Positions 1,667-23,155 of a DNA stretch of 24,000 bases are shown piece after piece; the first letter of the stretch is position 1, and each line of letters opens with the position of its first letter. This stretch comes from Betaproteobacteria bacterium (GTDB lineage: Bacteria; Pseudomonadota; Gammaproteobacteria; Burkholderiales; Casimicrobiaceae): NCBI GenBank assembly GCA_004293675.1, contig READ01000015.1, positions 214,865 through 238,864 of the forward strand, in the 5' to 3' direction. A model generated the notes under the pieces. The model was not told the DNA's origin. It did no database searches and saw only the letters and a list, made by a program, of their open reading frames with translations. The position numbers were made by a program, and so were the translations under genes.

Positions 1667-4132
1667 CTACTTCTTAAACCCCGCCAACCCCGCAAACGCA
1701 TTAGCCATCGCCCCTTGCGGCTTCGCCTGCTCTGGCGCACGCGGCGTGAAATTCCGAGGCGCTTGTCCGCCGCGCGGTTGGTTGCGATCATTGGGGTCGC
1801 GCTTCACAACCTCGGCATCCATGCGCATGGTGAGCGCGATGCGTTTGCGAATGACATCGACCTCGACCACCTTCACTTTCACGATTTGGCCGGCTTTCAC
1901 GACCTCTTTCGGGTCTTTCACGAACTTGTTGGCCAGCTGCGATACGTGCACCAATCCATCTTGATGCGCGCCGACATCGACGAACGCACCGAACGCCGCA
2001 ACGTTGGTCACCGTGCCTTCTAAGATCATGCCCTCTACCAGGTCCTTGATGTCGTTCACGCCATCATTGAACTTCGCGACCTTAAACTCTGGCCGTGGAT
2101 CGCGGCCTGGCTTTTCAAGCTCCGAGATCACGTCTTTCACCGTGATTTCACCAAAACCCTCAGCAACGAACGCAGCGCTCGAAACGGTTTTCAACGCTGC
2201 AGGGTTGCCCAGCAACTCGGGAAGTGTTTTCTTCGCACGTTCAAGAATTTTCTCCACCAGAGCGTAGCTCTCCGGATGCACCGAGCTCGCATCGAGCGGA
2301 TTTTCACCCCCACGAATGCGCAAGAAACCCGCGCATTGCTCAAACGTTTTCGGACCGATACCGGATACTTTCTTAATCGCATCACGGCTCGTAAATGCGC
2401 CCTGCGCTTCGCGGTGCGTGACGATACTTTTCGCGTTATTCGCCGACAAGCCGGCGACGCGTGTCAATAGCGGCGCGCTCGCCAAATTCACATCCACCCC
2501 GACTGAGTTAACACAGTCTTCAACAATGGCATCGAGCTTCTTAGCAAGCAACGATTGGTTCACATCATGCTGATACTGCCCCACGCCAATCGACTTCGGA
2601 TCGATCTTTACGAGCTCCGCCAGCGGGTCTTGCAAGCGCCGCGCGATGCTCACCGCGCCACGAATACTTACGTCTAAATCGGGCAATTCTTGCGATGCGT
2701 ATTCACTCGCCGAATACACCGATGCACCAGCCTCTGACACAATCACCTTGACCATATCCGTTCGTGGTGAGCCCGTCGAACCATGAACCAGCTTAATCAA
2801 ATCCGCCGCCAACTGATCAGTTTCGCGGCTCGCCGTGCCGTTGCCAATCGCAATCAATTGCACGCCATGTTTCTCAGCCAGCTTTCGCAGCGTATTGAGC
2901 GATCCATCCCAATCCTTCCGAGGTTCGTGCGGGTACACCGTTGTGAAGTCAACAACCTTGCCGGTTGCATCGACGACCGCCACCTTCACGCCGGTGCGAA
3001 TGCCAGGATCGAGCCCCATGGTGACCTTGTTGCCGGCGGGCGCAGCGAGCATCAGATCTCGCACGTTGTCGCCAAACACCTTGATCGCGACCTCTTCCGC
3101 GCTCTCACGCAGCTTCGCGAACAGATCCCGCTCAAGTGACGGCGCGAGCTTCACTTTCCACGTCCAACCCACCACGCGCTTGAGCCAATCATCTGCTGCG
3201 CGACCTTGATGTGACCATTTCACTTGAAGCGCGACCGCGCTCTCAGCGGGCGTGAACACGCTACCCGGTGTCTGCCCCCTCCCCTTCAAGGGGAGGGCTG
3301 GGGTGGGGATGGTTTTCTCATCGATCACACCGACAACCATCCCCCTCCCGACCTCCCCCTTGAAGGGGGAGGAGATGACTTCCGGCTCTGGCTGCGCCAA
3401 CTTCACCGTCAAAATCTCAGCCAGCCAACCGCGAAACACCGCGAGCGCGCGATGCGACGGCACCCGACCAATCGGCTCGGAATAATCGAAGTAATCGAGA
3501 AACTTCTCGCCCTCTTTGTCTTTGCCTTCGACCAGTTTGCTTTCAAACAGCCCGTTCGTCCATAGCCACTCGCGCAACCTGCCCACGAGCGTCGCGTCCT
3601 CGGCCCACGACTCACTCAAGATGTCACGCGCGCCATCCAAACACGCCTGCGCATCGGTAAAGATGGGCGCGGCACCCTCGGCGGGCGGTGCCGTCAAAAC
3701 ATACTTCGCGGCTTCAACGAGCGGCGTTAAGGTCGGATCAGCGTAGAGCGCATCAGCCAGGGGCTGCAAACCCGCCTCACGGGCGATTTGCGCCTTGGTG
3801 CGGCGCTTTTGTTTGTACGGCGCGTAAATATCCTCCAGCTCTTGCTTAGACACGGCACGATCAATAGCCACAGCCAAATCATCGGTCCACTTGTTTTGCT
3901 CTTTGATCGACGAAATCACCGCTTCGCGACGATCATCCAATTCGCGCAAATATTCCACCCGCTCGGCCAAGTAGCGCAATTGCACATCATCGAGATTCTG
4001 CGTCACCTCTTTACGATAACGAGCGATAAACGGCACCGTTGCGCCACCGTCCAACAAATCAACCGCTGCTTGCGCTTGCGGAACCGTAATCGCGACATCG
4101 CGCGCTAACCGAACAATCAGTGACTCAGGCAT
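1667..4132 (-). CDS. tex: Tex transcription accessory protein (S1 RNA-binding domain protein), carrying two repeat-derived in-frame insertions
   Basis: 821-aa ORF. The N-terminus has VPFIARYRKEVT. The YqgF-like segment is GLDPGIRTGVKVAVVDATGK, followed by SEAGASVYSAS, helix-hairpin-helix segments, and a C-terminal S1 domain (GMILEGTVTNVAAFGAFVDVGAHQDGLVHVSQL). As I recall, Tex proteins are about 770-790 aa, so this one is longer than usual. Confidence 0.93.
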   Translation of the reverse strand: MPESLIVRLARDVAITVPQAQAAVDLLDGGATVPFIARYRKEVTQNLDDVQLRYLAERVEYLRELDDRREAVISSIKEQNKWTDDLAVAIDRAVSKQELEDIYAPYKQKRRTKAQIAREAGLQPLADALYADPTLTPLVEAAKYVLTAPPAEGAAPIFTDAQACLDGARDILSESWAEDATLVGRLREWLWTNGLFESKLVEGKDKEGEKFLDYFDYSEPIGRVPSHRALAVFRGWLAEILTVKLAQPEPEVISSPFKGEVGRGMVVGVIDEKTIPTPALPLKGRGQTPGSVFTPAESAVALQVKWSHQGRAADDWLKRVVGWTWKVKLAPSLERDLFAKLRESAEEVAIKVFGDNVRDLMLAAPAGNKVTMGLDPGIRTGVKVAVVDATGKVVDFTTVYPHEPRKDWDGSLNTLRKLAEKHGVQLIAIGNGTASRETDQLAADLIKLVHGSTGSPRTDMVKVIVSEAGASVYSASEYASQELPDLDVSIRGAVSIARRLQDPLAELVKIDPKSIGVGQYQHDVNQSLLAKKLDAIVEDCVNSVGVDVNLASAPLLTRVAGLSANNAKSIVTHREAQGAFTSRDAIKKVSGIGPKTFEQCAGFLRIRGGENPLDASSVHPESYALVEKILERAKKTLPELLGNPAALKTVSSAAFVAEGFGEITVKDVISELEKPGRDPRPEFKVAKFNDGVNDIKDLVEGMILEGTVTNVAAFGAFVDVGAHQDGLVHVSQLANKFVKDPKEVVKAGQIVKVKVVEVDVIRKRIALTMRMDAEVVKRDPNDRNQPRGGQAPRNFTPRAPEQAKPQGAMANAFAGLAGFKK
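2757..2789. repeat. Single family-B repeat unit embedded in-frame in tex
   Basis: tccgttcgtggtgagcccgtcgaaccatgaacc matches the units of the 4642-4796 array almost base for base. It is 33 nt and encodes VHGSTGSPRTD in the Tex frame. Confidence 0.85.
3274..3373. repeat. Inverted pair of family-A G-rich hairpin units (MITE-like, about 100 bp) embedded in-frame in tex
   Basis: The left arm is gccccctccccttcaaggggagggctggggtggggatgg (3274-3312). The right arm (3338-3373) reverse-complements to ctcctcccccttcaagggggaggtcgggagggggatgg. A 25-bp spacer separates them. Each arm holds a local hairpin, CCCC(T)CCCCttcaaGGGG(A)GGG. The segment encodes ...SSPFKGEVGRGMVVGVIDEKTIPTPALPLKGRG... in Tex. Confidence 0.88.
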
Positions 4133-4633: not shown

Positions 4634-4641
4634 AGCATCCA

Positions 4642-4796
4642 CCCGTTCGTAGTGAGCCTGTCGAACCATGAGCCGCGCAACAATCCGTTCTTGGTGAGCC
4701 CGTCGAACCATGAACCCCACAACGCCCCGTTCGTGGTGAGCTTGTCGAACCATGAAGCACCAAACCCGTTCGTGGTGAGCCTGTCGAACCATGAAC
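4642..4796. repeat. Tandem array of four family-B 32-nt hairpin units (periods 42, 42 and 39 bp)
   Basis: The units start at 4642, 4684, 4726 and 4765, with consensus cccgttcgtggtgagcctgtcgaaccatgaac. The spacers are 10, 10 and 7 nt and are C/A-rich (cgcgcaacaa, cccacaacgc, caccaaa). Each unit can fold as GTTCGTGG...CCATGAAC or as GTTCG...CGAAC. The array fills the gap between the VOC stop (4633) and the GGAG Shine-Dalgarno at 4801. Confidence 0.92.
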
Positions 4797-4813
4797 CGCT
4801 GGAGCAATAAACC

Positions 4814-10186: not shown

Positions 10187-11611
10187 CTACGCTATGCGCA
10201 GGCGAAGCACCGCACGCGCTCCGAGCGCAGCATTCACAATAGAAAACTCACCCTGATGCAGCGCCATGACTTGCTTCACAATCGCCAATCCAAGACCACT
10301 GCTTTTAGGTGCGCCGCTCGGTCGCCGCGTAGATACAAAACGTTCACCAATTCTGGGAAGCAACATGGGATCAACGCCTGGTCCTGAATCCGACACAACA
10401 AGGTCAACGTGAGACGCGTTTGATTCAACATTCACAAGCACCCGCCCGCCTACGTTCGAAAACGCAATCGCGTTTTCCAACACATTGGATAGCGCAAGCT
10501 TCATCAACTCACGCTCCATCACAGCGCCAACGGGGCGCGACGGCAAACTCAGCTCAATGTGTACTTGCGCTCCATCGGCTCGCGGTTTCAGCGAATCGAC
10601 CACCTCACTCATGAGCGTACCCACATCGTGGTTTTTCGCATCGTCCAAACGCTGAGTTTGCTCCAAACGCGTCAACTCCAGCAATCGATCAACGCTGCGT
10701 TGCATGCGCGCGCTTTGATCGACCACATGCCCGGCAAATCGCGCTCGATCGGCGTCATTCATCGGCTCGGTCAACAATTCACCCGACGCGCGAATCGCCG
10801 CCAAAGGTGACTTCAATTCATGGGTGAGCGCCGTCACGTAGCGCTCCACATATTGCTGCCCCTCCAAGCGCGTTCGCATCGACGCCATCGCTCGCGCGAG
10901 CTTGCCCAGCTCGCCTCGAACCTCGGGCACCGGCACTCGCTTACCTGCGTCCACATCCTCAGCGTAGCGGGCCAATCGGCGAACTTCATACACCGTCCAG
11001 ATCGTGATGCCCGCACCGATCAACACCGACCACAGTAGCAACCACGCCGCGCTCTTGATGACACGCCATTCCGCTCGATCAATGAAAGGTTCAATGGTGT
11101 CCATGGGCTTGGCCACCGTGAGCACGCCAATCAATCGCCCCGCAGATTTCACAGGTGCCGCAACGTAGTAAATCGTTGGCCCATAGTCGCTTGATTTTTC
11201 TCGCGTGGCTCGCGCGCCGTATTCACCGCGAAGCGTCAACGCCACATCGCGCCACCGGCTGAAATCCTCGCCCACGGCTTTGTCCTCGGAATCAAACTGC
11301 ACAATGCCGCGCGCATCGGTCACATAGACCTGAAAATCGAGCGTCTCTTTGGCGATTCCCCAGATCGCCACATTGACCGCTCGCTGTCGATACGCTCGGA
11401 CATGATTGGCAAATCGCCCCGAGGCGATGGCTCCGCTCGCCAAATCGTCGCTCGCGACCTCGGCCAACAAATGCGCCGCGTCGACCATCACCTCTTCGGT
11501 CACTTCGCGCACACTCGGTCGAATTTCCGCAACGAAGGTATTCATCACGAAAAACATCGCAATGCCCAGCATCACGAAGCCCGCAAACATCATACGGATG
11601 CCTAGATACAT
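10187..11611 (-). CDS. creC: Sensor histidine kinase CreC
   Basis: 474 aa. The N-terminal TM region with FVAEIRPSVREVTEE is CreC-like. The H-box is LTHELKSPLAAIRASGELL, followed by an HATPase_c region (SDSGPGVD, GLGLAIVK). The synteny is creB-creC-creD. Confidence 0.88.
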   Translation of the reverse strand: MYLGIRMMFAGFVMLGIAMFFVMNTFVAEIRPSVREVTEEVMVDAAHLLAEVASDDLASGAIASGRFANHVRAYRQRAVNVAIWGIAKETLDFQVYVTDARGIVQFDSEDKAVGEDFSRWRDVALTLRGEYGARATREKSSDYGPTIYYVAAPVKSAGRLIGVLTVAKPMDTIEPFIDRAEWRVIKSAAWLLLWSVLIGAGITIWTVYEVRRLARYAEDVDAGKRVPVPEVRGELGKLARAMASMRTRLEGQQYVERYVTALTHELKSPLAAIRASGELLTEPMNDADRARFAGHVVDQSARMQRSVDRLLELTRLEQTQRLDDAKNHDVGTLMSEVVDSLKPRADGAQVHIELSLPSRPVGAVMERELMKLALSNVLENAIAFSNVGGRVLVNVESNASHVDLVVSDSGPGVDPMLLPRIGERFVSTRRPSGAPKSSGLGLAIVKQVMALHQGEFSIVNAALGARAVLRLRIA

Positions 11612-11630: not shown

Positions 11631-11672
11631 GTCCCCTCCCCTTCAAGGGGCGAGATAGGGTGGGGATGGGGT
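11631..11672. repeat. Single family-A G-rich hairpin unit in the creB-creC intercistronic gap
   Basis: gtcccctccccttcaaggggcgagatagggtggggatggggt aligns with the left arm at 3274-3312. It contains four G-tracts: GGGG-N7-GGG-N1-GGGG-N2-GGGG (11647-11671). Confidence 0.85.
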
Positions 11673-11758: not shown

Positions 11759-12472
11759 TTACAAAACAACCGAATACCCCAGCCCGCGATGCGTCACCAC
11801 CACATCGATTGACGGATCAGCGTTTCGTAACTTCGCGCGAAGCGTTTTGATGTGCGTGTCCACGGTGCGCTCCATGCTCTCAGCATCGCGTCCCCACACC
11901 CGATCTAAAAGCGTCTCGCGCGAATAGATTCGTCCAGGACTTTGCAACAACAACTGCAAAAGATGCAATTCGCGACGCGTTAAATCAAGCCACTGATTGG
12001 CGTAGCGAAAGCGCTGTCCCGCAGCATCAAATTCGAAGCGCTGCGTCGGTTCTGCGAGCGGCGTGGCACCATTGGGCACACTCTGCGCACGGCGCAAAAT
12101 CGTCTTTACACGAAGCACCACTTCACGCGGGCTAAATGGTTTGGTCACGTAATCGTCCGCCCCCAATTCCAGCCCGACGATGCGATCGACCTCATCACTC
12201 ATCGCCGTCAACATCAAAATCGGAAGCTCGCTCGCTGAGAAATCCCCGCGTCGAATCTCACGACACAGATCAAGCCCTGAACCATCGGGCAATCCTAAAT
12301 CAAGAATGACCAACTGCGGCAGGTTCAACAGCACAGCGCGCGCCGCGGTCAATGTTGTTGCATGCTGCGCAGCAATGCCCGCCGTTGCGAGCGCGTAGAG
12401 CAAGGTCTCGGCGATAGCAATCTCGTCCTCAACGATCAATACGGACACAGCATCAGCGTTTGGTGAATTCAT
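11759..12472 (-). CDS. creB: OmpR-family response regulator CreB
   Basis: The receiver domain has VLIVEDE, DLGLPDGSG and the LTA..E..D.I.GLELGADDYVTKPFSPREV pattern. The winged-helix region has RTVDTHIKTLRAKLR and THRGLGY, close to E. coli CreB. I chose the ATG at 12472. The track ORF extends to a GTG at 12526. Confidence 0.88.
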   Translation of the reverse strand: MNSPNADAVSVLIVEDEIAIAETLLYALATAGIAAQHATTLTAARAVLLNLPQLVILDLGLPDGSGLDLCREIRRGDFSASELPILMLTAMSDEVDRIVGLELGADDYVTKPFSPREVVLRVKTILRRAQSVPNGATPLAEPTQRFEFDAAGQRFRYANQWLDLTRRELHLLQLLLQSPGRIYSRETLLDRVWGRDAESMERTVDTHIKTLRAKLRNADPSIDVVVTHRGLGYSVVL

Positions 12473-12572
12473 GACCGGATTGTGACACTGGCGCGGCGTG
12501 AGTCGATCCAAATCCCCTTTTGTCACGCGAACCGCGAATCAGCGAATCGATATGCCAACCATTTCAATCAAT

Positions 12573-13811: not shown

Positions 13812-13932
13812 CACCTGAGCGTTGCGATTCAGACTCCTCCCATGGCGCGATCAGACCTTCCACTTCTACACTCGCGGCGCGCATCAAACGATGCATGTCA
13901 CTAGATGGCACCATAACAATGAGGATTTCCGC

Positions 13933-16899
13933 ATGACCCGTCCTGGATTTATCACCAATGCCCTTCGGCTCGCGCTGTTTGGCGGCGGCTTCGTACTGGC
14001 CGCGCCCGTACTCGCCGTCATGACCACCGACAGCCAAGGCAACGTCGGCTACAGCACTGCCGCCGAATGTGACGCAGCCGTTGCAGCTGGCACCGCAAAG
14101 TTCTACGAACCCTTCACCTCGCACCCGCCGCTCAAGCGCGACGGCGAAGCCAACGTCAAACAGGGCAAACTCTCTGACGTGGGCGGCGAATACAACCGCG
14201 GCGCCTGTGATCTAGGCGTCGGTCGCTCCAACGAGCGCGATGGCGTGAGCAAAGCGCTCATTGGTAAATACGTACCCTTCAGCGCGAGCCTACCGGTCAA
14301 CATCTACACCGACGCCAAGGGCGCGATTGTTCGCACCACCATGCAAAAGTGCGACAACCTGCCACGCCCCGTCGGCATCACCGCCGTCTCTGGCACCGAG
14401 TGTTTCGCCAACGTCGCCATCGGCCCACGTTTCGAAACCAAAACAGAACAGATCGTAAAAGTACCCGCAACGAAGCGCTTTGAAGTGGTGCCCGCCACCA
14501 CCAAAACCGTGACCGAGCAAGTGCTCGTGCAACCCGAATTGAAACGCCAGGTGCCCGTGCCTGCAACGCTCAAAACCGTGACCGAACAAGTCATGGTCAC
14601 CCCAGAAACCAAGCGCTTCATTCCGATTCCGGCCACGTTCAAAACGGTCACCGAGCAAGTGTTGGTTCAGCCCGAAACCAAGCGCTTCATTCCCGTTCCA
14701 GCCACGATGAAAACGGTGACTGAACAGGTATTGGTTAGCCCCGAATTCAAGCGTCAGATCCCAGTGCCCGGCACCACAAAAACCGTGACCGAAACGGTAG
14801 TCGTGCGCCCTGAATCTGTTCGCGAAGAGCCGATTCCAGCCACGTTCAAAACGGTCACTGAGACCGTGATGACCAAAGCTGAAAGCAAGCGCATCGAAGT
14901 CATTCCCGGCACATTCAAAACCGTCACCGAACAAGTCGTTGCCACCCCTGAGCGCAAAGAGCTCAAAGTCGTGCCCGCTGTGTTCGAAGACCGTCAAGAA
15001 TCCGTGCTCGACCGCCCCGCCACCACGCGTGTTGAAACCATCGCACCCACGTTCCGCGCTGTCACCGAGCAAGTGCTCGTGACCCCGGAAACCATTCGCT
15101 ATGAGCCCATCGAAATTCCAACGCGCGTTGTCTCTGAGCAAGTATTGGCCACGCCTGCCAGCTCACGCTTAGAAACCATTGCCAGCTCGGTGAAAACCGT
15201 GACTGAGCGTGTTGTTGTTCGCGAGGCCAGCAAGCGCCTTGAAACGGTGCCCGCCGTGTTCGAAACAGTGACTGAGCGCGTTCGTGTCGCTGACAAAGCG
15301 CTCGAATGGAAAAAAGGTCGCGCATGGATCAGCCAAGCACTGACCGTTCGCCCCGCCAAAGGCTTCGCCGTAGGTAGCGACGGTCGTGTTGACGGCGCCA
15401 AAGTTGACGCTGTGAGCACCGCCCCAGTCGCAACGACCACGGGCACACCCGCTAGCGCCGCCGCTGCTGCCGCCGCCGGCATCAATCTCGCTCCGGGCGC
15501 CATCATCGGCAAGGATGACGACGTGTGGTGCTTGGTTGAGATTCCTGAGCGCTTCGAAACGATTACGCGCCAAGTATTGAAAACACCAGCGAGCGTTCGT
15601 GAAGTTGAAGTTGCCGCTGAATACGCAAACGTTGAGCGCCAGGTAGCCGATCGTGCCGCTGCAACGCGCACGGTTGAAATCCCAGCCACGTACCAAACAG
15701 TGACCCGCACCGTTATTGATGTTGAGCGCCTGAAAACACTCGGCTACAAATTCGACGACAAGGGCGACATCGTGACCACACCGAACGGTGAGCGTGTTCT
15801 GCGCGCTGCATCGATCGCGGGTTGGACCGGTAGTGTTTCGGGTGGCCGCGCGGGTGCCCCTGGCGTTACTGCAACCGGTGCTGCTGGCGCGAACGCTGCC
15901 AACACCGCCGCTGCCGTAGGTCAATCCAACGCTATTTCACAGCGCAGCGCTGGTGCCGCTTCCGGCATCGAAGGCTACGTTCGTGAAGTAAAAGTGGCTG
16001 CGGTATTTAAGAACGAAACACGCCAAGTCGTCGACAAAGCTGCGAGCGTTCGCACCATTGAAGTGCCAGCCACGTTCAAAACGGTCAAGAGCCGTGTGAT
16101 GGTGAAACCCGCCACCACCGAAGAGATCGTGATACCAGCGACCTTCAAAACGGTGACACGTCAAGTGGTGGACAAACCCGCCAGCTCGCGCGAAATCGTG
16201 ATCCCGGCTGAATTCCGCACGGTCGAGCGCCGCGTGGTTGACACCCCAGCAACGACCAAAAAAATCAGCGTACCTGCTGAGACACAACAAGTGTCGCGCC
16301 AAGTGATCGACAAACCTGCGTCGTTCCGCGAAGAAACGATTCCGGCTGTGTTCAAAACAGAAACCCGTCAAATCGTTGATAAGCCTGCATCGTTCCGCGA
16401 GGAAACCATCGCAGCGGTCTACAAGACTGAATCGCGTCAAGTGATCGACAAGCCTGCATCGTTCCGCGAGGAAACGGTTCCTGCTGTGTTCAAAACAGAA
16501 ACCCGTCAGATCGTTGATAAGCCAGCGTCATTCCGCGAAGAAACCGTGCCCGCTGTCTTTAAGACCGAAGCTCGCCAGATCGTTGATCGCGCCGCAGCGA
16601 CTCGTGAAATCGACGTGCCCGCCGTGTTCGAAACTATTTCTACGCAAGTAAAAGTAGCCGACGCAACGGTTGAGCGCCGCTCGGTGCTGTGCGAATCCAA
16701 CGCTACCGCGCAAAAGATTCGTGAGATTCAAGTTGCGCTTAAAGAAGCTGGATTTGATCCCGGTCGCGTTGATGGTGTGATTCGTCCATCGATGATGCAA
16801 GCTGTGACGCGATTCCAGCAAGCCAAAAACTTGCCAATCGATGACGGTCGCGCCATCAATATCGCCACCGTTAAAGCGCTGAAAGTGTCACCTCAGTAA
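13933..16899 (+). CDS. Secreted 988-aa repeat protein: Cys-containing N-terminal domain, about 26 copies of a 23-aa repeat in three blocks, and a C-terminal peptidoglycan-binding (PG_binding_1-like) domain
   Basis: ATG at 13933 with GAGGA 7 nt upstream. The signal peptide is MTRPGFITNALRLALFGGGFVLAAPVLA. Typical repeats are PATFKTVTEQVLVQPETKRFIPV and PAVFKTETRQIVDKPASFREETV. The C-terminus is VLCESNATAQKIREIQVALKEAGFDPGRVDGVIRPSMMQAVTRFQQAKNLPIDDGRAINIATVKAL. The track ORF starts earlier, at 13822. Confidence 0.85.
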   Translation: MTRPGFITNALRLALFGGGFVLAAPVLAVMTTDSQGNVGYSTAAECDAAVAAGTAKFYEPFTSHPPLKRDGEANVKQGKLSDVGGEYNRGACDLGVGRSNERDGVSKALIGKYVPFSASLPVNIYTDAKGAIVRTTMQKCDNLPRPVGITAVSGTECFANVAIGPRFETKTEQIVKVPATKRFEVVPATTKTVTEQVLVQPELKRQVPVPATLKTVTEQVMVTPETKRFIPIPATFKTVTEQVLVQPETKRFIPVPATMKTVTEQVLVSPEFKRQIPVPGTTKTVTETVVVRPESVREEPIPATFKTVTETVMTKAESKRIEVIPGTFKTVTEQVVATPERKELKVVPAVFEDRQESVLDRPATTRVETIAPTFRAVTEQVLVTPETIRYEPIEIPTRVVSEQVLATPASSRLETIASSVKTVTERVVVREASKRLETVPAVFETVTERVRVADKALEWKKGRAWISQALTVRPAKGFAVGSDGRVDGAKVDAVSTAPVATTTGTPASAAAAAAAGINLAPGAIIGKDDDVWCLVEIPERFETITRQVLKTPASVREVEVAAEYANVERQVADRAAATRTVEIPATYQTVTRTVIDVERLKTLGYKFDDKGDIVTTPNGERVLRAASIAGWTGSVSGGRAGAPGVTATGAAGANAANTAAAVGQSNAISQRSAGAASGIEGYVREVKVAAVFKNETRQVVDKAASVRTIEVPATFKTVKSRVMVKPATTEEIVIPATFKTVTRQVVDKPASSREIVIPAEFRTVERRVVDTPATTKKISVPAETQQVSRQVIDKPASFREETIPAVFKTETRQIVDKPASFREETIAAVYKTESRQVIDKPASFREETVPAVFKTETRQIVDKPASFREETVPAVFKTEARQIVDRAAATREIDVPAVFETISTQVKVADATVERRSVLCESNATAQKIREIQVALKEAGFDPGRVDGVIRPSMMQAVTRFQQAKNLPIDDGRAINIATVKALKVSPQ
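14425..15294 (+). repeat. Intragenic repeat block 1: 13 x 69 bp (23 aa)
   Basis: Units run from PRFETKTEQIVKV... to PAVFETVTERVRVADKALEWKKG. All are in strict 23-residue register with no indels. Confidence 0.85.
15970..16660 (+). repeat. Intragenic repeat block 3: 10 x 69 bp, including four near-identical units at 16309-16584
   Basis: Units run from AAVFKNETRQVVDKAASVRTIEV to PAVFETISTQVKVADATVERRSV. A short block 2 of 3 units lies at about 15538-15750, between Ala/Gly-rich linkers. Confidence 0.85.
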
Positions 16900-16930: not shown

Positions 16931-16958
16931 GTCGTCACTAAAAGCCCGCCTCGCGCGG
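16931..16958 (+). terminator. Rho-independent terminator after the repeat-protein gene
   Basis: aaaGCCCGCctcgcGCGGGCttttttta: a GC-rich 6-bp stem (up to 9 bp with flanking A:T pairs) followed by a 7-T run, 32 nt after the stop. A second hairpin, ACGCATCagctTGATGCGT, lies just upstream. Confidence 0.85.
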
Positions 16959-17048
16959 GCTTTTTTTATGCTGGGTAGACAACAAAATGAATTTGTATAT
17001 TCCAAAATAGAAAAATAGACATCCATCGAGTGACCCAACAATGTCGTC

Positions 17049-20725: not shown

Positions 20726-23155
<2,430 letters not shown>

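Follow-up and report, generated by a model that had tools for sequence, protein, structure and literature searches.

We analysed a 24,000-nucleotide stretch of the Casimicrobiaceae contig READ01000015.1 (assembly GCA_004293675.1), referred to below as the window, in which the gene for the conserved protein Tex hosts two in-frame insertions of dispersed repeats. The larger is an inverted doublet of hairpin units, here called family A, with the architecture of a REPIN (a doublet of repetitive extragenic palindromic (REP) sequences forming a hairpin); the smaller belongs to a second family, F. The product of the tex open reading frame (ORF) contains the Pfam series Tex_N, Tex_central_region, Tex_YqgF, HHH_3, HHH_9 and S1, all above the gathering cut-offs, and matches Tex of P. 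aeruginosa (PDB 2oce/3bzc) with an E-value of ~1e-265; an identical protein is recorded from a betaproteobacterial metagenome-assembled genome, and the nearest named relatives are Casimicrobium-like Burkholderiales. A preliminary description of this DNA had placed the doublet in frame within an intact ORF. The letters it gave for 3274–3373 match the window exactly, and the in-frame location is borne out, all Tex domains being present. The features of the gene are as follows.

1667–4132, minus strand: tex, an intact ORF of 821 aa hosting two in-frame repeat insertions.
3270–3379, no strand assigned: REPIN-like inverted doublet of family A units, tails inward, encoding Tex residues ~252–288 (insertion 1).
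3274–3312, plus strand: family A unit, subtype 2, with the hairpin CCCTCCCCTT-C-AAGGGGAGGG at 3277–3297, the linker CT and the tail GGGGTGGGGATGG at 3300–3312.
3313–3336, no strand assigned: spacer of 24 nt that separates the units; it encodes roughly VVGVIDEKT.
3337–3373, minus strand: family A unit, subtype 1, with the hairpin at 3352–3372 and the tail GGAGGGGGATGG.
2751–2789, minus strand: family F dispersed repeat, in frame in tex, with the hairpin GTTCATGGT-loop-ACCACGAAC, encoding VHGSTGSPRTDM in the YqgF domain with a net gain of 7 aa (insertion 2).

A repeat search delineated two inverted arms of 48 nt (3270–3317 and 3332–3379), which are 75% complementary with 14 nt between them, and each arm contains a perfect C/G hairpin of 10+10 nt (3277–3297 and 3352–3372). 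The doublet is an inverted pair of 36–39-nt units, each consisting of a 10-bp hairpin and a GGGGTGGGGATGG-type tail. Read on the tex strand, the unit at 3274–3312 specifies IPTPALPLKGRG and the unit at 3337–3373 specifies SSPFKGEVGRGM; the element-encoded Tex residues 254–286 are SSPFKGEVGRGMVVGVIDEKTIPTPALPLKGRG. The core CCCTTSAAGGGG was matched six times over both strands of three sites in the window, where shuffled sequences give an expectation of 0.10 (0 of 100 shuffles reached six). Folded as mRNA the doublet has an energy of −81.9 kcal/mol (z = −6.75), folded as single-stranded DNA it has z = −5.5, and it is among the few strong hairpins of the 24 kb. A reading as a transcription terminator was rejected, no terminator-like site coinciding with the doublet, and an Rfam scan of the window yielded nothing at the gathering threshold. 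One further family A site brings the units visible in the window to three:

11631–11672, plus strand: solitary family A unit, between the histidine-kinase ORF 10187–11611 and the response-regulator ORF 11759–12526.

Because it lies between two ORFs this copy is non-coding, as had been stated previously. Its counterpart is present at 2464–2495 of L002, a locus of the same species (GCA_004294085.1), and is absent from the congener L003, where the two genes are 5 nt apart. The unit parts the histidine-kinase and response-regulator genes of a two-component operon, and an effect on the expression of the operon is possible.

Comparison with relatives shows an insertion. The Tex proteins P0005, P0006, P0007, P0009 and P0010 (786–789 aa, 94–95% identity) lack the segment and read QL/QI-APGEAPPKA-GS where the window protein reads EVI-SSPFKGEVGRGMVVGVIDEKTIPTPALPLKGRG-QTP-GS. 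In the DNA alignment L003 and L006 carry the doublet with the same left junction, and L001, L004 and L005 lack it; the site measures 33 nt when empty (CAACTTGCGCCCGGAGAGGCTTCGCCGAAAGCT) and 117 nt when filled, so that the net gain amounts to 84 nt (28 codons). Outgroups such as P0011 share the empty sequence APGEAPPKA. In 82 of 104 diverse Tex sequences (38–58% identity; median 11) the anchor residues L245 and E297 are separated by 11 residues, as compared with 51 in the window protein, and the alignment with P. aeruginosa Tex falls into two pieces, stopping at query residue 246 and restarting at 283, with the crystal sequence unbroken at residue 245. As close relatives are empty and diverse Tex proteins have a short loop, the difference is a gain in the window and not a loss elsewhere, and the segment is an in-frame insertion of a dispersed hairpin-repeat doublet. 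The insertion proposed in the preliminary description is thus supported at the protein and DNA level, and an ancestral, conserved segment is not what the alignments show. The ~35-aa excess given there needs amendment: the region is longer here than in relatives, but the 35-residue excess over the 786-aa relatives is composed of 28 plus 7 residues, because there are two separate repeat insertions.

At 23 aa, with a PGE motif, the empty loop of the clade (L001 3730–3790; P0005–P0011) exceeds the 11 aa usual for this loop of Tex by 12 aa. This surplus roughly matches one repeat unit and may be the remnant of an older, decayed insertion.

The position of both insertions in the protein was evaluated with an AlphaFold2 model, computed from an alignment of 112 diverse Tex sequences (67 close homologues as input gave a predicted local distance difference test score, pLDDT, of only 55.6). 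The model reached a pLDDT of 91.7 and a predicted template-modelling score (pTM) of 0.89, and superposed on 3bzc, 3bzk and 2oce with target-normalised template-modelling (TM) scores of 0.83–0.85 (0.85 to 3bzc). Residues 247–294, which include insertion 1, are predicted as coil (pLDDT 43–53) between a confident strand (241–246) and a confident helix (295–303); given the low-confidence prediction, this loop is probably disordered. Insertion 2 is predicted as coil (residues 453–460, block pLDDT 75) between helix 435–452 and strand 461–465 of the YqgF domain. According to the model both insertions are loop decorations on an otherwise intact Tex fold. A loop position of the segment, raised in the preliminary description, is in keeping with its low-confidence coil between well-folded elements.

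The arms of the doublet were compared with the rest of the gene for their mode of divergence. Between the window and L003 the tex genes are 86% identical in DNA, with 27 amino acid differences in 763 codons and 265 synonymous codon changes, and tex as a whole is under strong purifying selection. Gene-wide, 265 of the 736 codons for identical amino acids carry a synonymous change (36%) versus 0 of 22 codons in the arms (P ~5e-5, our own binomial estimate from the counts). The two differences in the arms are both non-synonymous and both fall in the variable linker. The pairs window/L006 and L003/L006 each have one synonymous change in 21 arm codons. The spacer 3313–3336 shows 81% nucleotide identity between the window and L003, which is the background divergence, whereas the arms show 97%; it also differs between different family A doublets and is not a conserved part of the element. 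Frozen synonymous sites combined with non-synonymous changes in the linker are the opposite of protein-level constraint, and the arms are thus constrained at the nucleotide and not the protein level. This conservation would be explained if the arms were homogenised against other copies in the genome or if selection acted on the hairpin itself.

The preliminary description had also drawn attention to a G-quadruplex (G4) motif:

3290–3308, plus strand: canonical G4 motif GGGGAGGGCTGGGGTGGGG, on the template strand of tex (regular-expression scan).

A canonical G4 motif has four runs of at least 3 G with 1–7 nt between them; the scan found only two in the 24 kb, the second in the unit at 11631–11672, and both are in family A units. 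G4-aware minimum-free-energy folding with RNA parameters favoured the G4 for an isolated unit (−28.5 vs −19.6 kcal/mol). In the doublet the long hairpin was retained (−72.8 kcal/mol for the G-rich plus strand). The motif is thus canonical and on the template strand as described, but the G4 is predicted to win for the isolated unit only and the doublet to prefer the hairpin.

Family A was sampled in 248 loci from genome and metagenome collections, together ~1.7 Mb (1.69 Mb of flanks). The genome collection was searched with a pattern that has a gap of 6–9 nt, the window units' own gap being 11, and the metagenomes with an adjusted pattern; the counts are lower bounds. The loci contain at least 346 units, 110 of which (32%) form 55 tail-to-tail doublets with spacers of 18–46 nt. 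Among the matches listed, the hosts are Nitrospirota, Gallionellaceae, Rhodocyclales, Xanthomonadales and Geobacter, along with single metagenome-assembled genomes (MAGs) labelled Phycisphaerales and Dehalococcoidales. The repeat is therefore a dispersed element, as claimed at the outset, with copies in relatives and in many other genomes of many phyla. Each unit is built of a 10-bp C/G hairpin, a linker of 2–4 nt and a G-rich GGGGTGGGGATGG-type tail. The 10-bp stem is preserved in 306 unique units, and its positions 7 and 8 covary between T-A and C-G with ~90% Watson-Crick pairing; the linker is variable and the tail reads GGG(T/A)GGGGATGG, in most cases with T-rich sequence after it. In relatives, the copies near tex vary in presence and position. 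The pairing of subtype 1 with subtype 2 recurs in doublets 3' of tex in L002 and L003, and the subtype 1 unit is also found in the intergenic DNA at that place in L003.

No GTAG or CGTC tag was present at either end of the units, neither in the window nor among the 306 unique units. Of the features of REPs, family A has the stem-loop with compensatory changes and the recurrent inverted doublets, and lacks the GTAG or CGTC tag. A full-text literature search by repeat sequence returned unrelated eukaryotic matches only and no bacterial paper. Classification as a miniature inverted-repeat transposable element was considered and rejected: although the element has inverted arms, it lacks a target-site duplication, the ancestral loop has lost ~15 nt and no parent insertion sequence was found, a DUF559 cassette (described below) being the only candidate parent.

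By our own reading five of the six frames of a unit are open, the sixth containing the TGA of the loop CCTTGAAGG, which helps explain why units often enter or cross ORFs. Most units are at gene ends or between genes. Units lying under long stop-to-stop ORFs were not accepted as intragenic, since they are mostly at the extreme ends of the frame and thus extragenic; few are confirmed inside proteins. These include a doublet in HrpA of a Propionivibrio MAG (L051 ~1600–1770), which puts ~50 aa that E. coli HrpA lacks between the HA2 and OB domains, and a single unit inside a Mur ligase of a Troglogloeales MAG (L065). A doublet also lies inside czcA (ACR_tran) at L256 3678–3760, L248 3903–4014 and L257 3220–3305, that is, in the complete isolate genome of Sulfurimicrobium lacus (L256) and in two related populations.

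Where two units were 350–2600 nt apart, the sequence between them contained an ORF of ~120 aa of the DUF559 family (PF04480) in 3 of 8 cases. A tblastn search with these ORFs revealed six DUF559 genes in the 1.69 Mb, all six within 140 nt of a unit; we estimate that ~7% of this DNA lies that close to one. Sampling in the reverse direction gave the same result, with family A units at the ends of 4 of 4 DUF559 homologues chosen from a protein search. The loci are listed below.

L022, L077, L092, L128, L141, L218, L248, L256, L257 and L259: DUF559 genes bracketed by inverted family A units.

Eight of the ten have the layout [hairpin>tail]-ORF-[tail<hairpin], including L248, which is without the upstream unit, and L092, which is cut off downstream; in the other two, which belong to a separate subfamily of 118 aa, the layout is mirrored. 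Upstream, the unit stops 4–139 nt short of the start codon; downstream, the other unit adjoins or overlaps the stop codon. The C-terminus is unit-encoded in at least 106 of 120 DUF559 homologues, as PSPPQPSP, HPHPNPPLEGEG and once IPTPALPLKGRG, the last being the same peptide as in the window Tex. In the commonest frame at these ends the stop is the TGA of the hairpin loop. The unit flanking the DUF559 gene of L259 is identical to the window unit 3274–3312. L259 was rejected as a member of the window's lineage, a neighbouring gene being closest to Rhodocyclaceae (85%) versus Casimicrobiaceae (75–76%). In several genomes of Nitrosomonadales type, L256 (AP022853.1, 1950–2405), L248, L257 and L022, the cassette lies between czcB, for a membrane-fusion protein, and czcA, for a resistance-nodulation-division (RND) pump. 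Overall, the family A repeat is physically tied to DUF559 genes. The link looks new: in the literature library searched, no paper connects DUF559 or Vsr to REP-like repeats. The Vsr clade of PD-(D/E)xK nucleases includes both DUF559 and a proven homing-endonuclease family (PMC3424549, Table 1).

The Tex loop was surveyed in the best 120 Tex homologues (73–100% identity; counts are out of 119). Repeat-derived peptides occupy loop 1 in 38 of them and are of at least five types:

Type A: FKGEVGRG...PLKGRG.
Type B: PPGGEGARRAGEG...SPSPQPSPPGGGS.
Type C: SPLAGEG...SPNPSPARGEG.
Type D: SPLRGRGD...
Type E: VRPE...SGRT.

Short remnants such as LPPGEVAQSAGEGKR were found as well. Loop 2 has family F-type peptides in 16 of the 119. 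On a neighbour-joining tree with both loops masked, Fitch parsimony counted a minimum of 25 changes of state for loop 1 and of 11 for loop 2, numbers that are rough and indicative only, recombination being ignored. Taken together, the survey shows that loop 1 is a recurrently occupied hot-spot in related lineages. The at least five unrelated peptide types, combined with the codon pattern of the arms, show that the tex peptide is not under protein-level selection. In L002, which is 94–97% identical to the window in DNA over 12.5 kb, tex carries a family B doublet at the exact place of the window's family A doublet. The comparison of the two tex genes is mosaic and identity collapses around the repeat; repeated insertion therefore has a serious rival in the exchange of alleles by homologous recombination.

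The second insertion is a copy of family F, whose unit is CCGTTCGTGGTGAGCCYGTCGAACCATGAAC with a 9-bp stem (GTTCGTGGT/ACCATGAAC hairpin). Tex residues 448–460 are LVHGSTGSPRTDM in the window versus QLGGGV in relatives. In the DNA alignment this insert is absent from L003 and L004 and enlarged in L006. The window contains five family F copies with 74–100% identity, including an intergenic group 1.9 kb from the tex copy:

4636–4797, plus strand: cluster of four family F units with a spacing of ~42 nt, between a glyoxalase gene and a PALP gene.

Repeats are also found 3' of tex, where the window has an element of yet another kind:

1594–1663, no strand assigned: GTAG-tagged REP doublet (GTAGGAGCGGCTTGCCGCGAATG plus complement), between a major facilitator superfamily (MFS) gene and the tex stop codon; arms of 31 nt, 90% complementary.

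At this site the same-species L002 (12450–12650) has a family A doublet with a nested 22-nt element in each hairpin loop, and L003 (12462–12590) a family A doublet of one plain and one nested unit. REP families are thus swapped 3' of tex too. The nested element, of 22–24 nt and CATGCCCTGAGCTTGTCGAAGG-like, lies precisely in the TTCAAG loop of the family A hairpins in several separate copies (L002 12465–12500 and 12590–12650; L003 12535–12590; arm 1 of the L006 tex doublet). Either it forms a composite subfamily that is propagating or hairpin loops are targets for insertion.

We interpret the tex segment as a non-autonomous, REPIN-like family A doublet that sits in a tolerated loop of Tex, and assign to this interpretation a probability of roughly 0.8. 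The doublet would have entered the DNA for the loop, replacing ~11 ancestral codons with 39, for the net gain of 28 residues. It would persist because its length preserves the frame, five of six unit frames are without stop, and nearly any peptide is accepted in the loop. On this view the encoded peptide itself does nothing, what is conserved is the arm DNA, through the element's own biology, and related lineages have filled, exchanged or cleared the same loop many times. The doublet shares the layout of the DUF559 cassette, minus the ORF in the spacer, and we propose, as inference only, that it is an ORF-less derivative of such a cassette. The DUF559 nuclease may spread, maintain or homogenise the units, and pre-existing units may attract further ones, as hinted by the nested insertions and the family swaps. 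On a more tentative level, which we regard as possible but clearly short of probable, family A would be the first REP-type system run by a DUF559 (Vsr-like PD-(D/E)xK) nuclease in place of a REP-associated tyrosine transposase (RAYT). In this scheme nicks made by the nuclease in the hairpin units would be repaired from other copies, and the units would thereby be spread and homogenised much as in homing.

Several observations weigh against this interpretation. No DUF559 gene was found in ~100 kb from the window's own lineage, and the units flanking DUF559 in the czc context are of another subtype (GAAGG...GGATGGGGATGG) than the tex pair. The filled site has no clean insertion footprint: ~15 nt of the ancestral loop is missing, and no target-site duplication was seen around the insert in the DNA alignment with relatives, nor any direct repeat flanking it. 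The linkage to DUF559 could arise from units serving as terminator or ribosome-binding site or accumulating nearby. Likewise, conservation of the arms could reflect selection on mRNA or DNA structure within tex, and alleles at the same site may have spread by homologous recombination and not by repeated insertion.

The alternative that survives best, although we consider it unlikely, is that of a classical REPIN, with the units mobilised by a single-copy RAYT (HUH Y1 transposase) elsewhere in the genome and DUF559 being incidental. The short imperfect palindrome, the inverted doublets and the mostly extragenic, dispersed distribution fit such a system, and with a true GTAG doublet at 1594–1663 the genome probably has a RAYT. 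Family A itself, however, is without GTAG or CGTC tag. Moreover, neither a scan for the HUH...Y motif nor tblastn detected a RAYT in the 1.69 Mb flanking the at least 346 units (the query was approximate and the sensitivity of the screen is uncertain), in contrast to the six DUF559 genes there, all beside units.

Somewhat less likely still, and in our view doubtful, is a function in cis, by which the hairpin or G4 would slow ribosomes, set the half-life of the mRNA, or impede transcription or replication. The great stability of the mRNA hairpin (−81.9 kcal/mol, z = −6.75), the arms without synonymous change and the confinement of the window's only two canonical G4 motifs to family A units are compatible with such a role. 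Sister lineages at 94–95% protein identity nevertheless do without the doublet, and a same-species genome has another repeat family at the site. Furthermore, the conservation of the arms is a family-wide property at any location, no terminator-like site is found there, and the hairpin beats the G4 in the doublet. Exaptation of the 33–39 additional residues, in which G, P, K and R abound, as a new binding surface of Tex is very improbable: the gene is intact and under purifying selection and the insert is common to lineages ~85% identical in DNA, but the segment is a low-confidence coil, relatives have unrelated peptides in the same loop and many have none, and the arms, with non-synonymous changes and frozen synonymous sites, show the reverse of protein-level constraint. 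An ancestral segment lost elsewhere, or an assembly artefact of the metagenome bin, can practically be dismissed, for although the window is from a MAG and repeats are easily mis-assembled, the loop is short in 82 of 104 diverse Tex, outgroups such as P0011 have the empty APGEAPPKA, independent JGI and NCBI assemblies (L003, L006) also contain the insertion, and the ORF is in frame with confident folds on both sides.

The nearest published parallels to a family A doublet within a gene are intragenic REPs. Di Nocera, De Gregorio and Rocco (2013, PMC3733652) distinguished GTAG and CGTC REP superfamilies and catalogued intragenic REP singles and dimers in several phyla. In their survey intragenic dimers or grouped repeats encode 20–30 aa, some genes are hit twice, two different REPs occur at about the same site of Xanthomonas recB genes, and DNA- and RNA-handling proteins are over-represented among the hosts; Tex is absent from their list (PMC3733652). 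Since in-frame REP dimers have already been catalogued, the tex insertion is less rare than the preliminary description held, which had considered such cases rare outside Rickettsia. Like family A, the published repeats are short palindromes, mostly extragenic, often inverted dimers and occasionally wholly inside known genes. Family A differs in having no tag, in its 12–13-nt G-rich tail and in the associated gene, which is DUF559 and not RAYT. The tex loop differs by its many more occupancies of one loop (at least 25 state changes, 119 homologues). What goes beyond the known cases is the density of loop occupancies, the nucleotide-level freezing in coding DNA, and a tag-less, phylum-spanning family that brackets DUF559.

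REPIN–RAYT systems, reportedly treated by Nunvar et al. in 2010, offer a second comparison. RAYTs are habitually single-copy and vertically inherited. Both in these systems and in family A the entity that apparently replicates is the inverted doublet, and a small gene of nuclease type has units on its flanks (Bertels and Rainey 2011, PMC3116915). A RAYT is often at a conserved chromosomal position, and several DUF559 genes are likewise between czcB and czcA. In contrast, the gene flanked by family A encodes a PD-(D/E)xK (DUF559/Vsr-like) protein and not a HUH tyrosine transposase, there is no GTAG head, and family A, unlike REPIN populations, which are as a rule lineage-specific, spans phyla.

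Rickettsia palindromic elements (RPEs; Ogata et al. 2000, as summarised in PMC10969869) are ~100–150 bp long and inserted in frame in conserved genes at permissive sites of the protein. As there described, they share with the tex doublet the nature of palindromic selfish DNA tolerated at a permissive place. Going by the same descriptions, an RPE family has one conserved peptide, whereas in family A the DNA of the arms is conserved, and the taxon and unit structure differ. The tex insert was not filed as an RPE because its host is betaproteobacterial.

For the nuclease, the closest comparison is with the Vsr-like (EDxHD) homing endonucleases, exemplified by I-Bth0305I (PDB 3r3p), which reside in group I introns and inteins and spread by cleavage and repair-copying. 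To our knowledge they have no hairpin-repeat partner. They belong to the same nuclease clade as DUF559 and are proven drivers of the spread of selfish DNA (PMC3424549), unlike the family A-associated DUF559 proteins, which are known here from their genes.

Elsewhere in the window, gyrB is at 20726–23152, and gidA, gidB, parA and parB are found just past tex in the same-species locus L002 (17000–22448); with these genes nearby, the region is probably close to the replication origin. An ORF of 1025 aa (13822–16899) consists mostly of 69-nt (23-aa) tandem repeats (PATFKTVTEQV-like) and has a C-terminal peptidoglycan-binding domain (PF01471). It is followed by a strong terminator-like hairpin at 16940–16964.

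DUF559 is a large family of unknown function, and for many REP families no mobilising enzyme is known. Should the link between DUF559 and family A be functional, it would give DUF559 a role and REP biology a second, RAYT-independent engine. Nuclease-driven homing, if true, would account for the frozen arms in tex, the family swaps, the nested insertions and the re-occupation of the loop; a unit in a permissive coding loop would then become a long-lived landing pad, and REP families without a dedicated transposase, such as the CGTC REPs, could be explained in the same way. In-frame selfish palindromes are a route for the gain of loops in conserved proteins, and tex offers, at a single site, a natural series of states (empty, single unit, doublet, nested, replaced and decayed) in which the rise and fading of such inserts can be studied.

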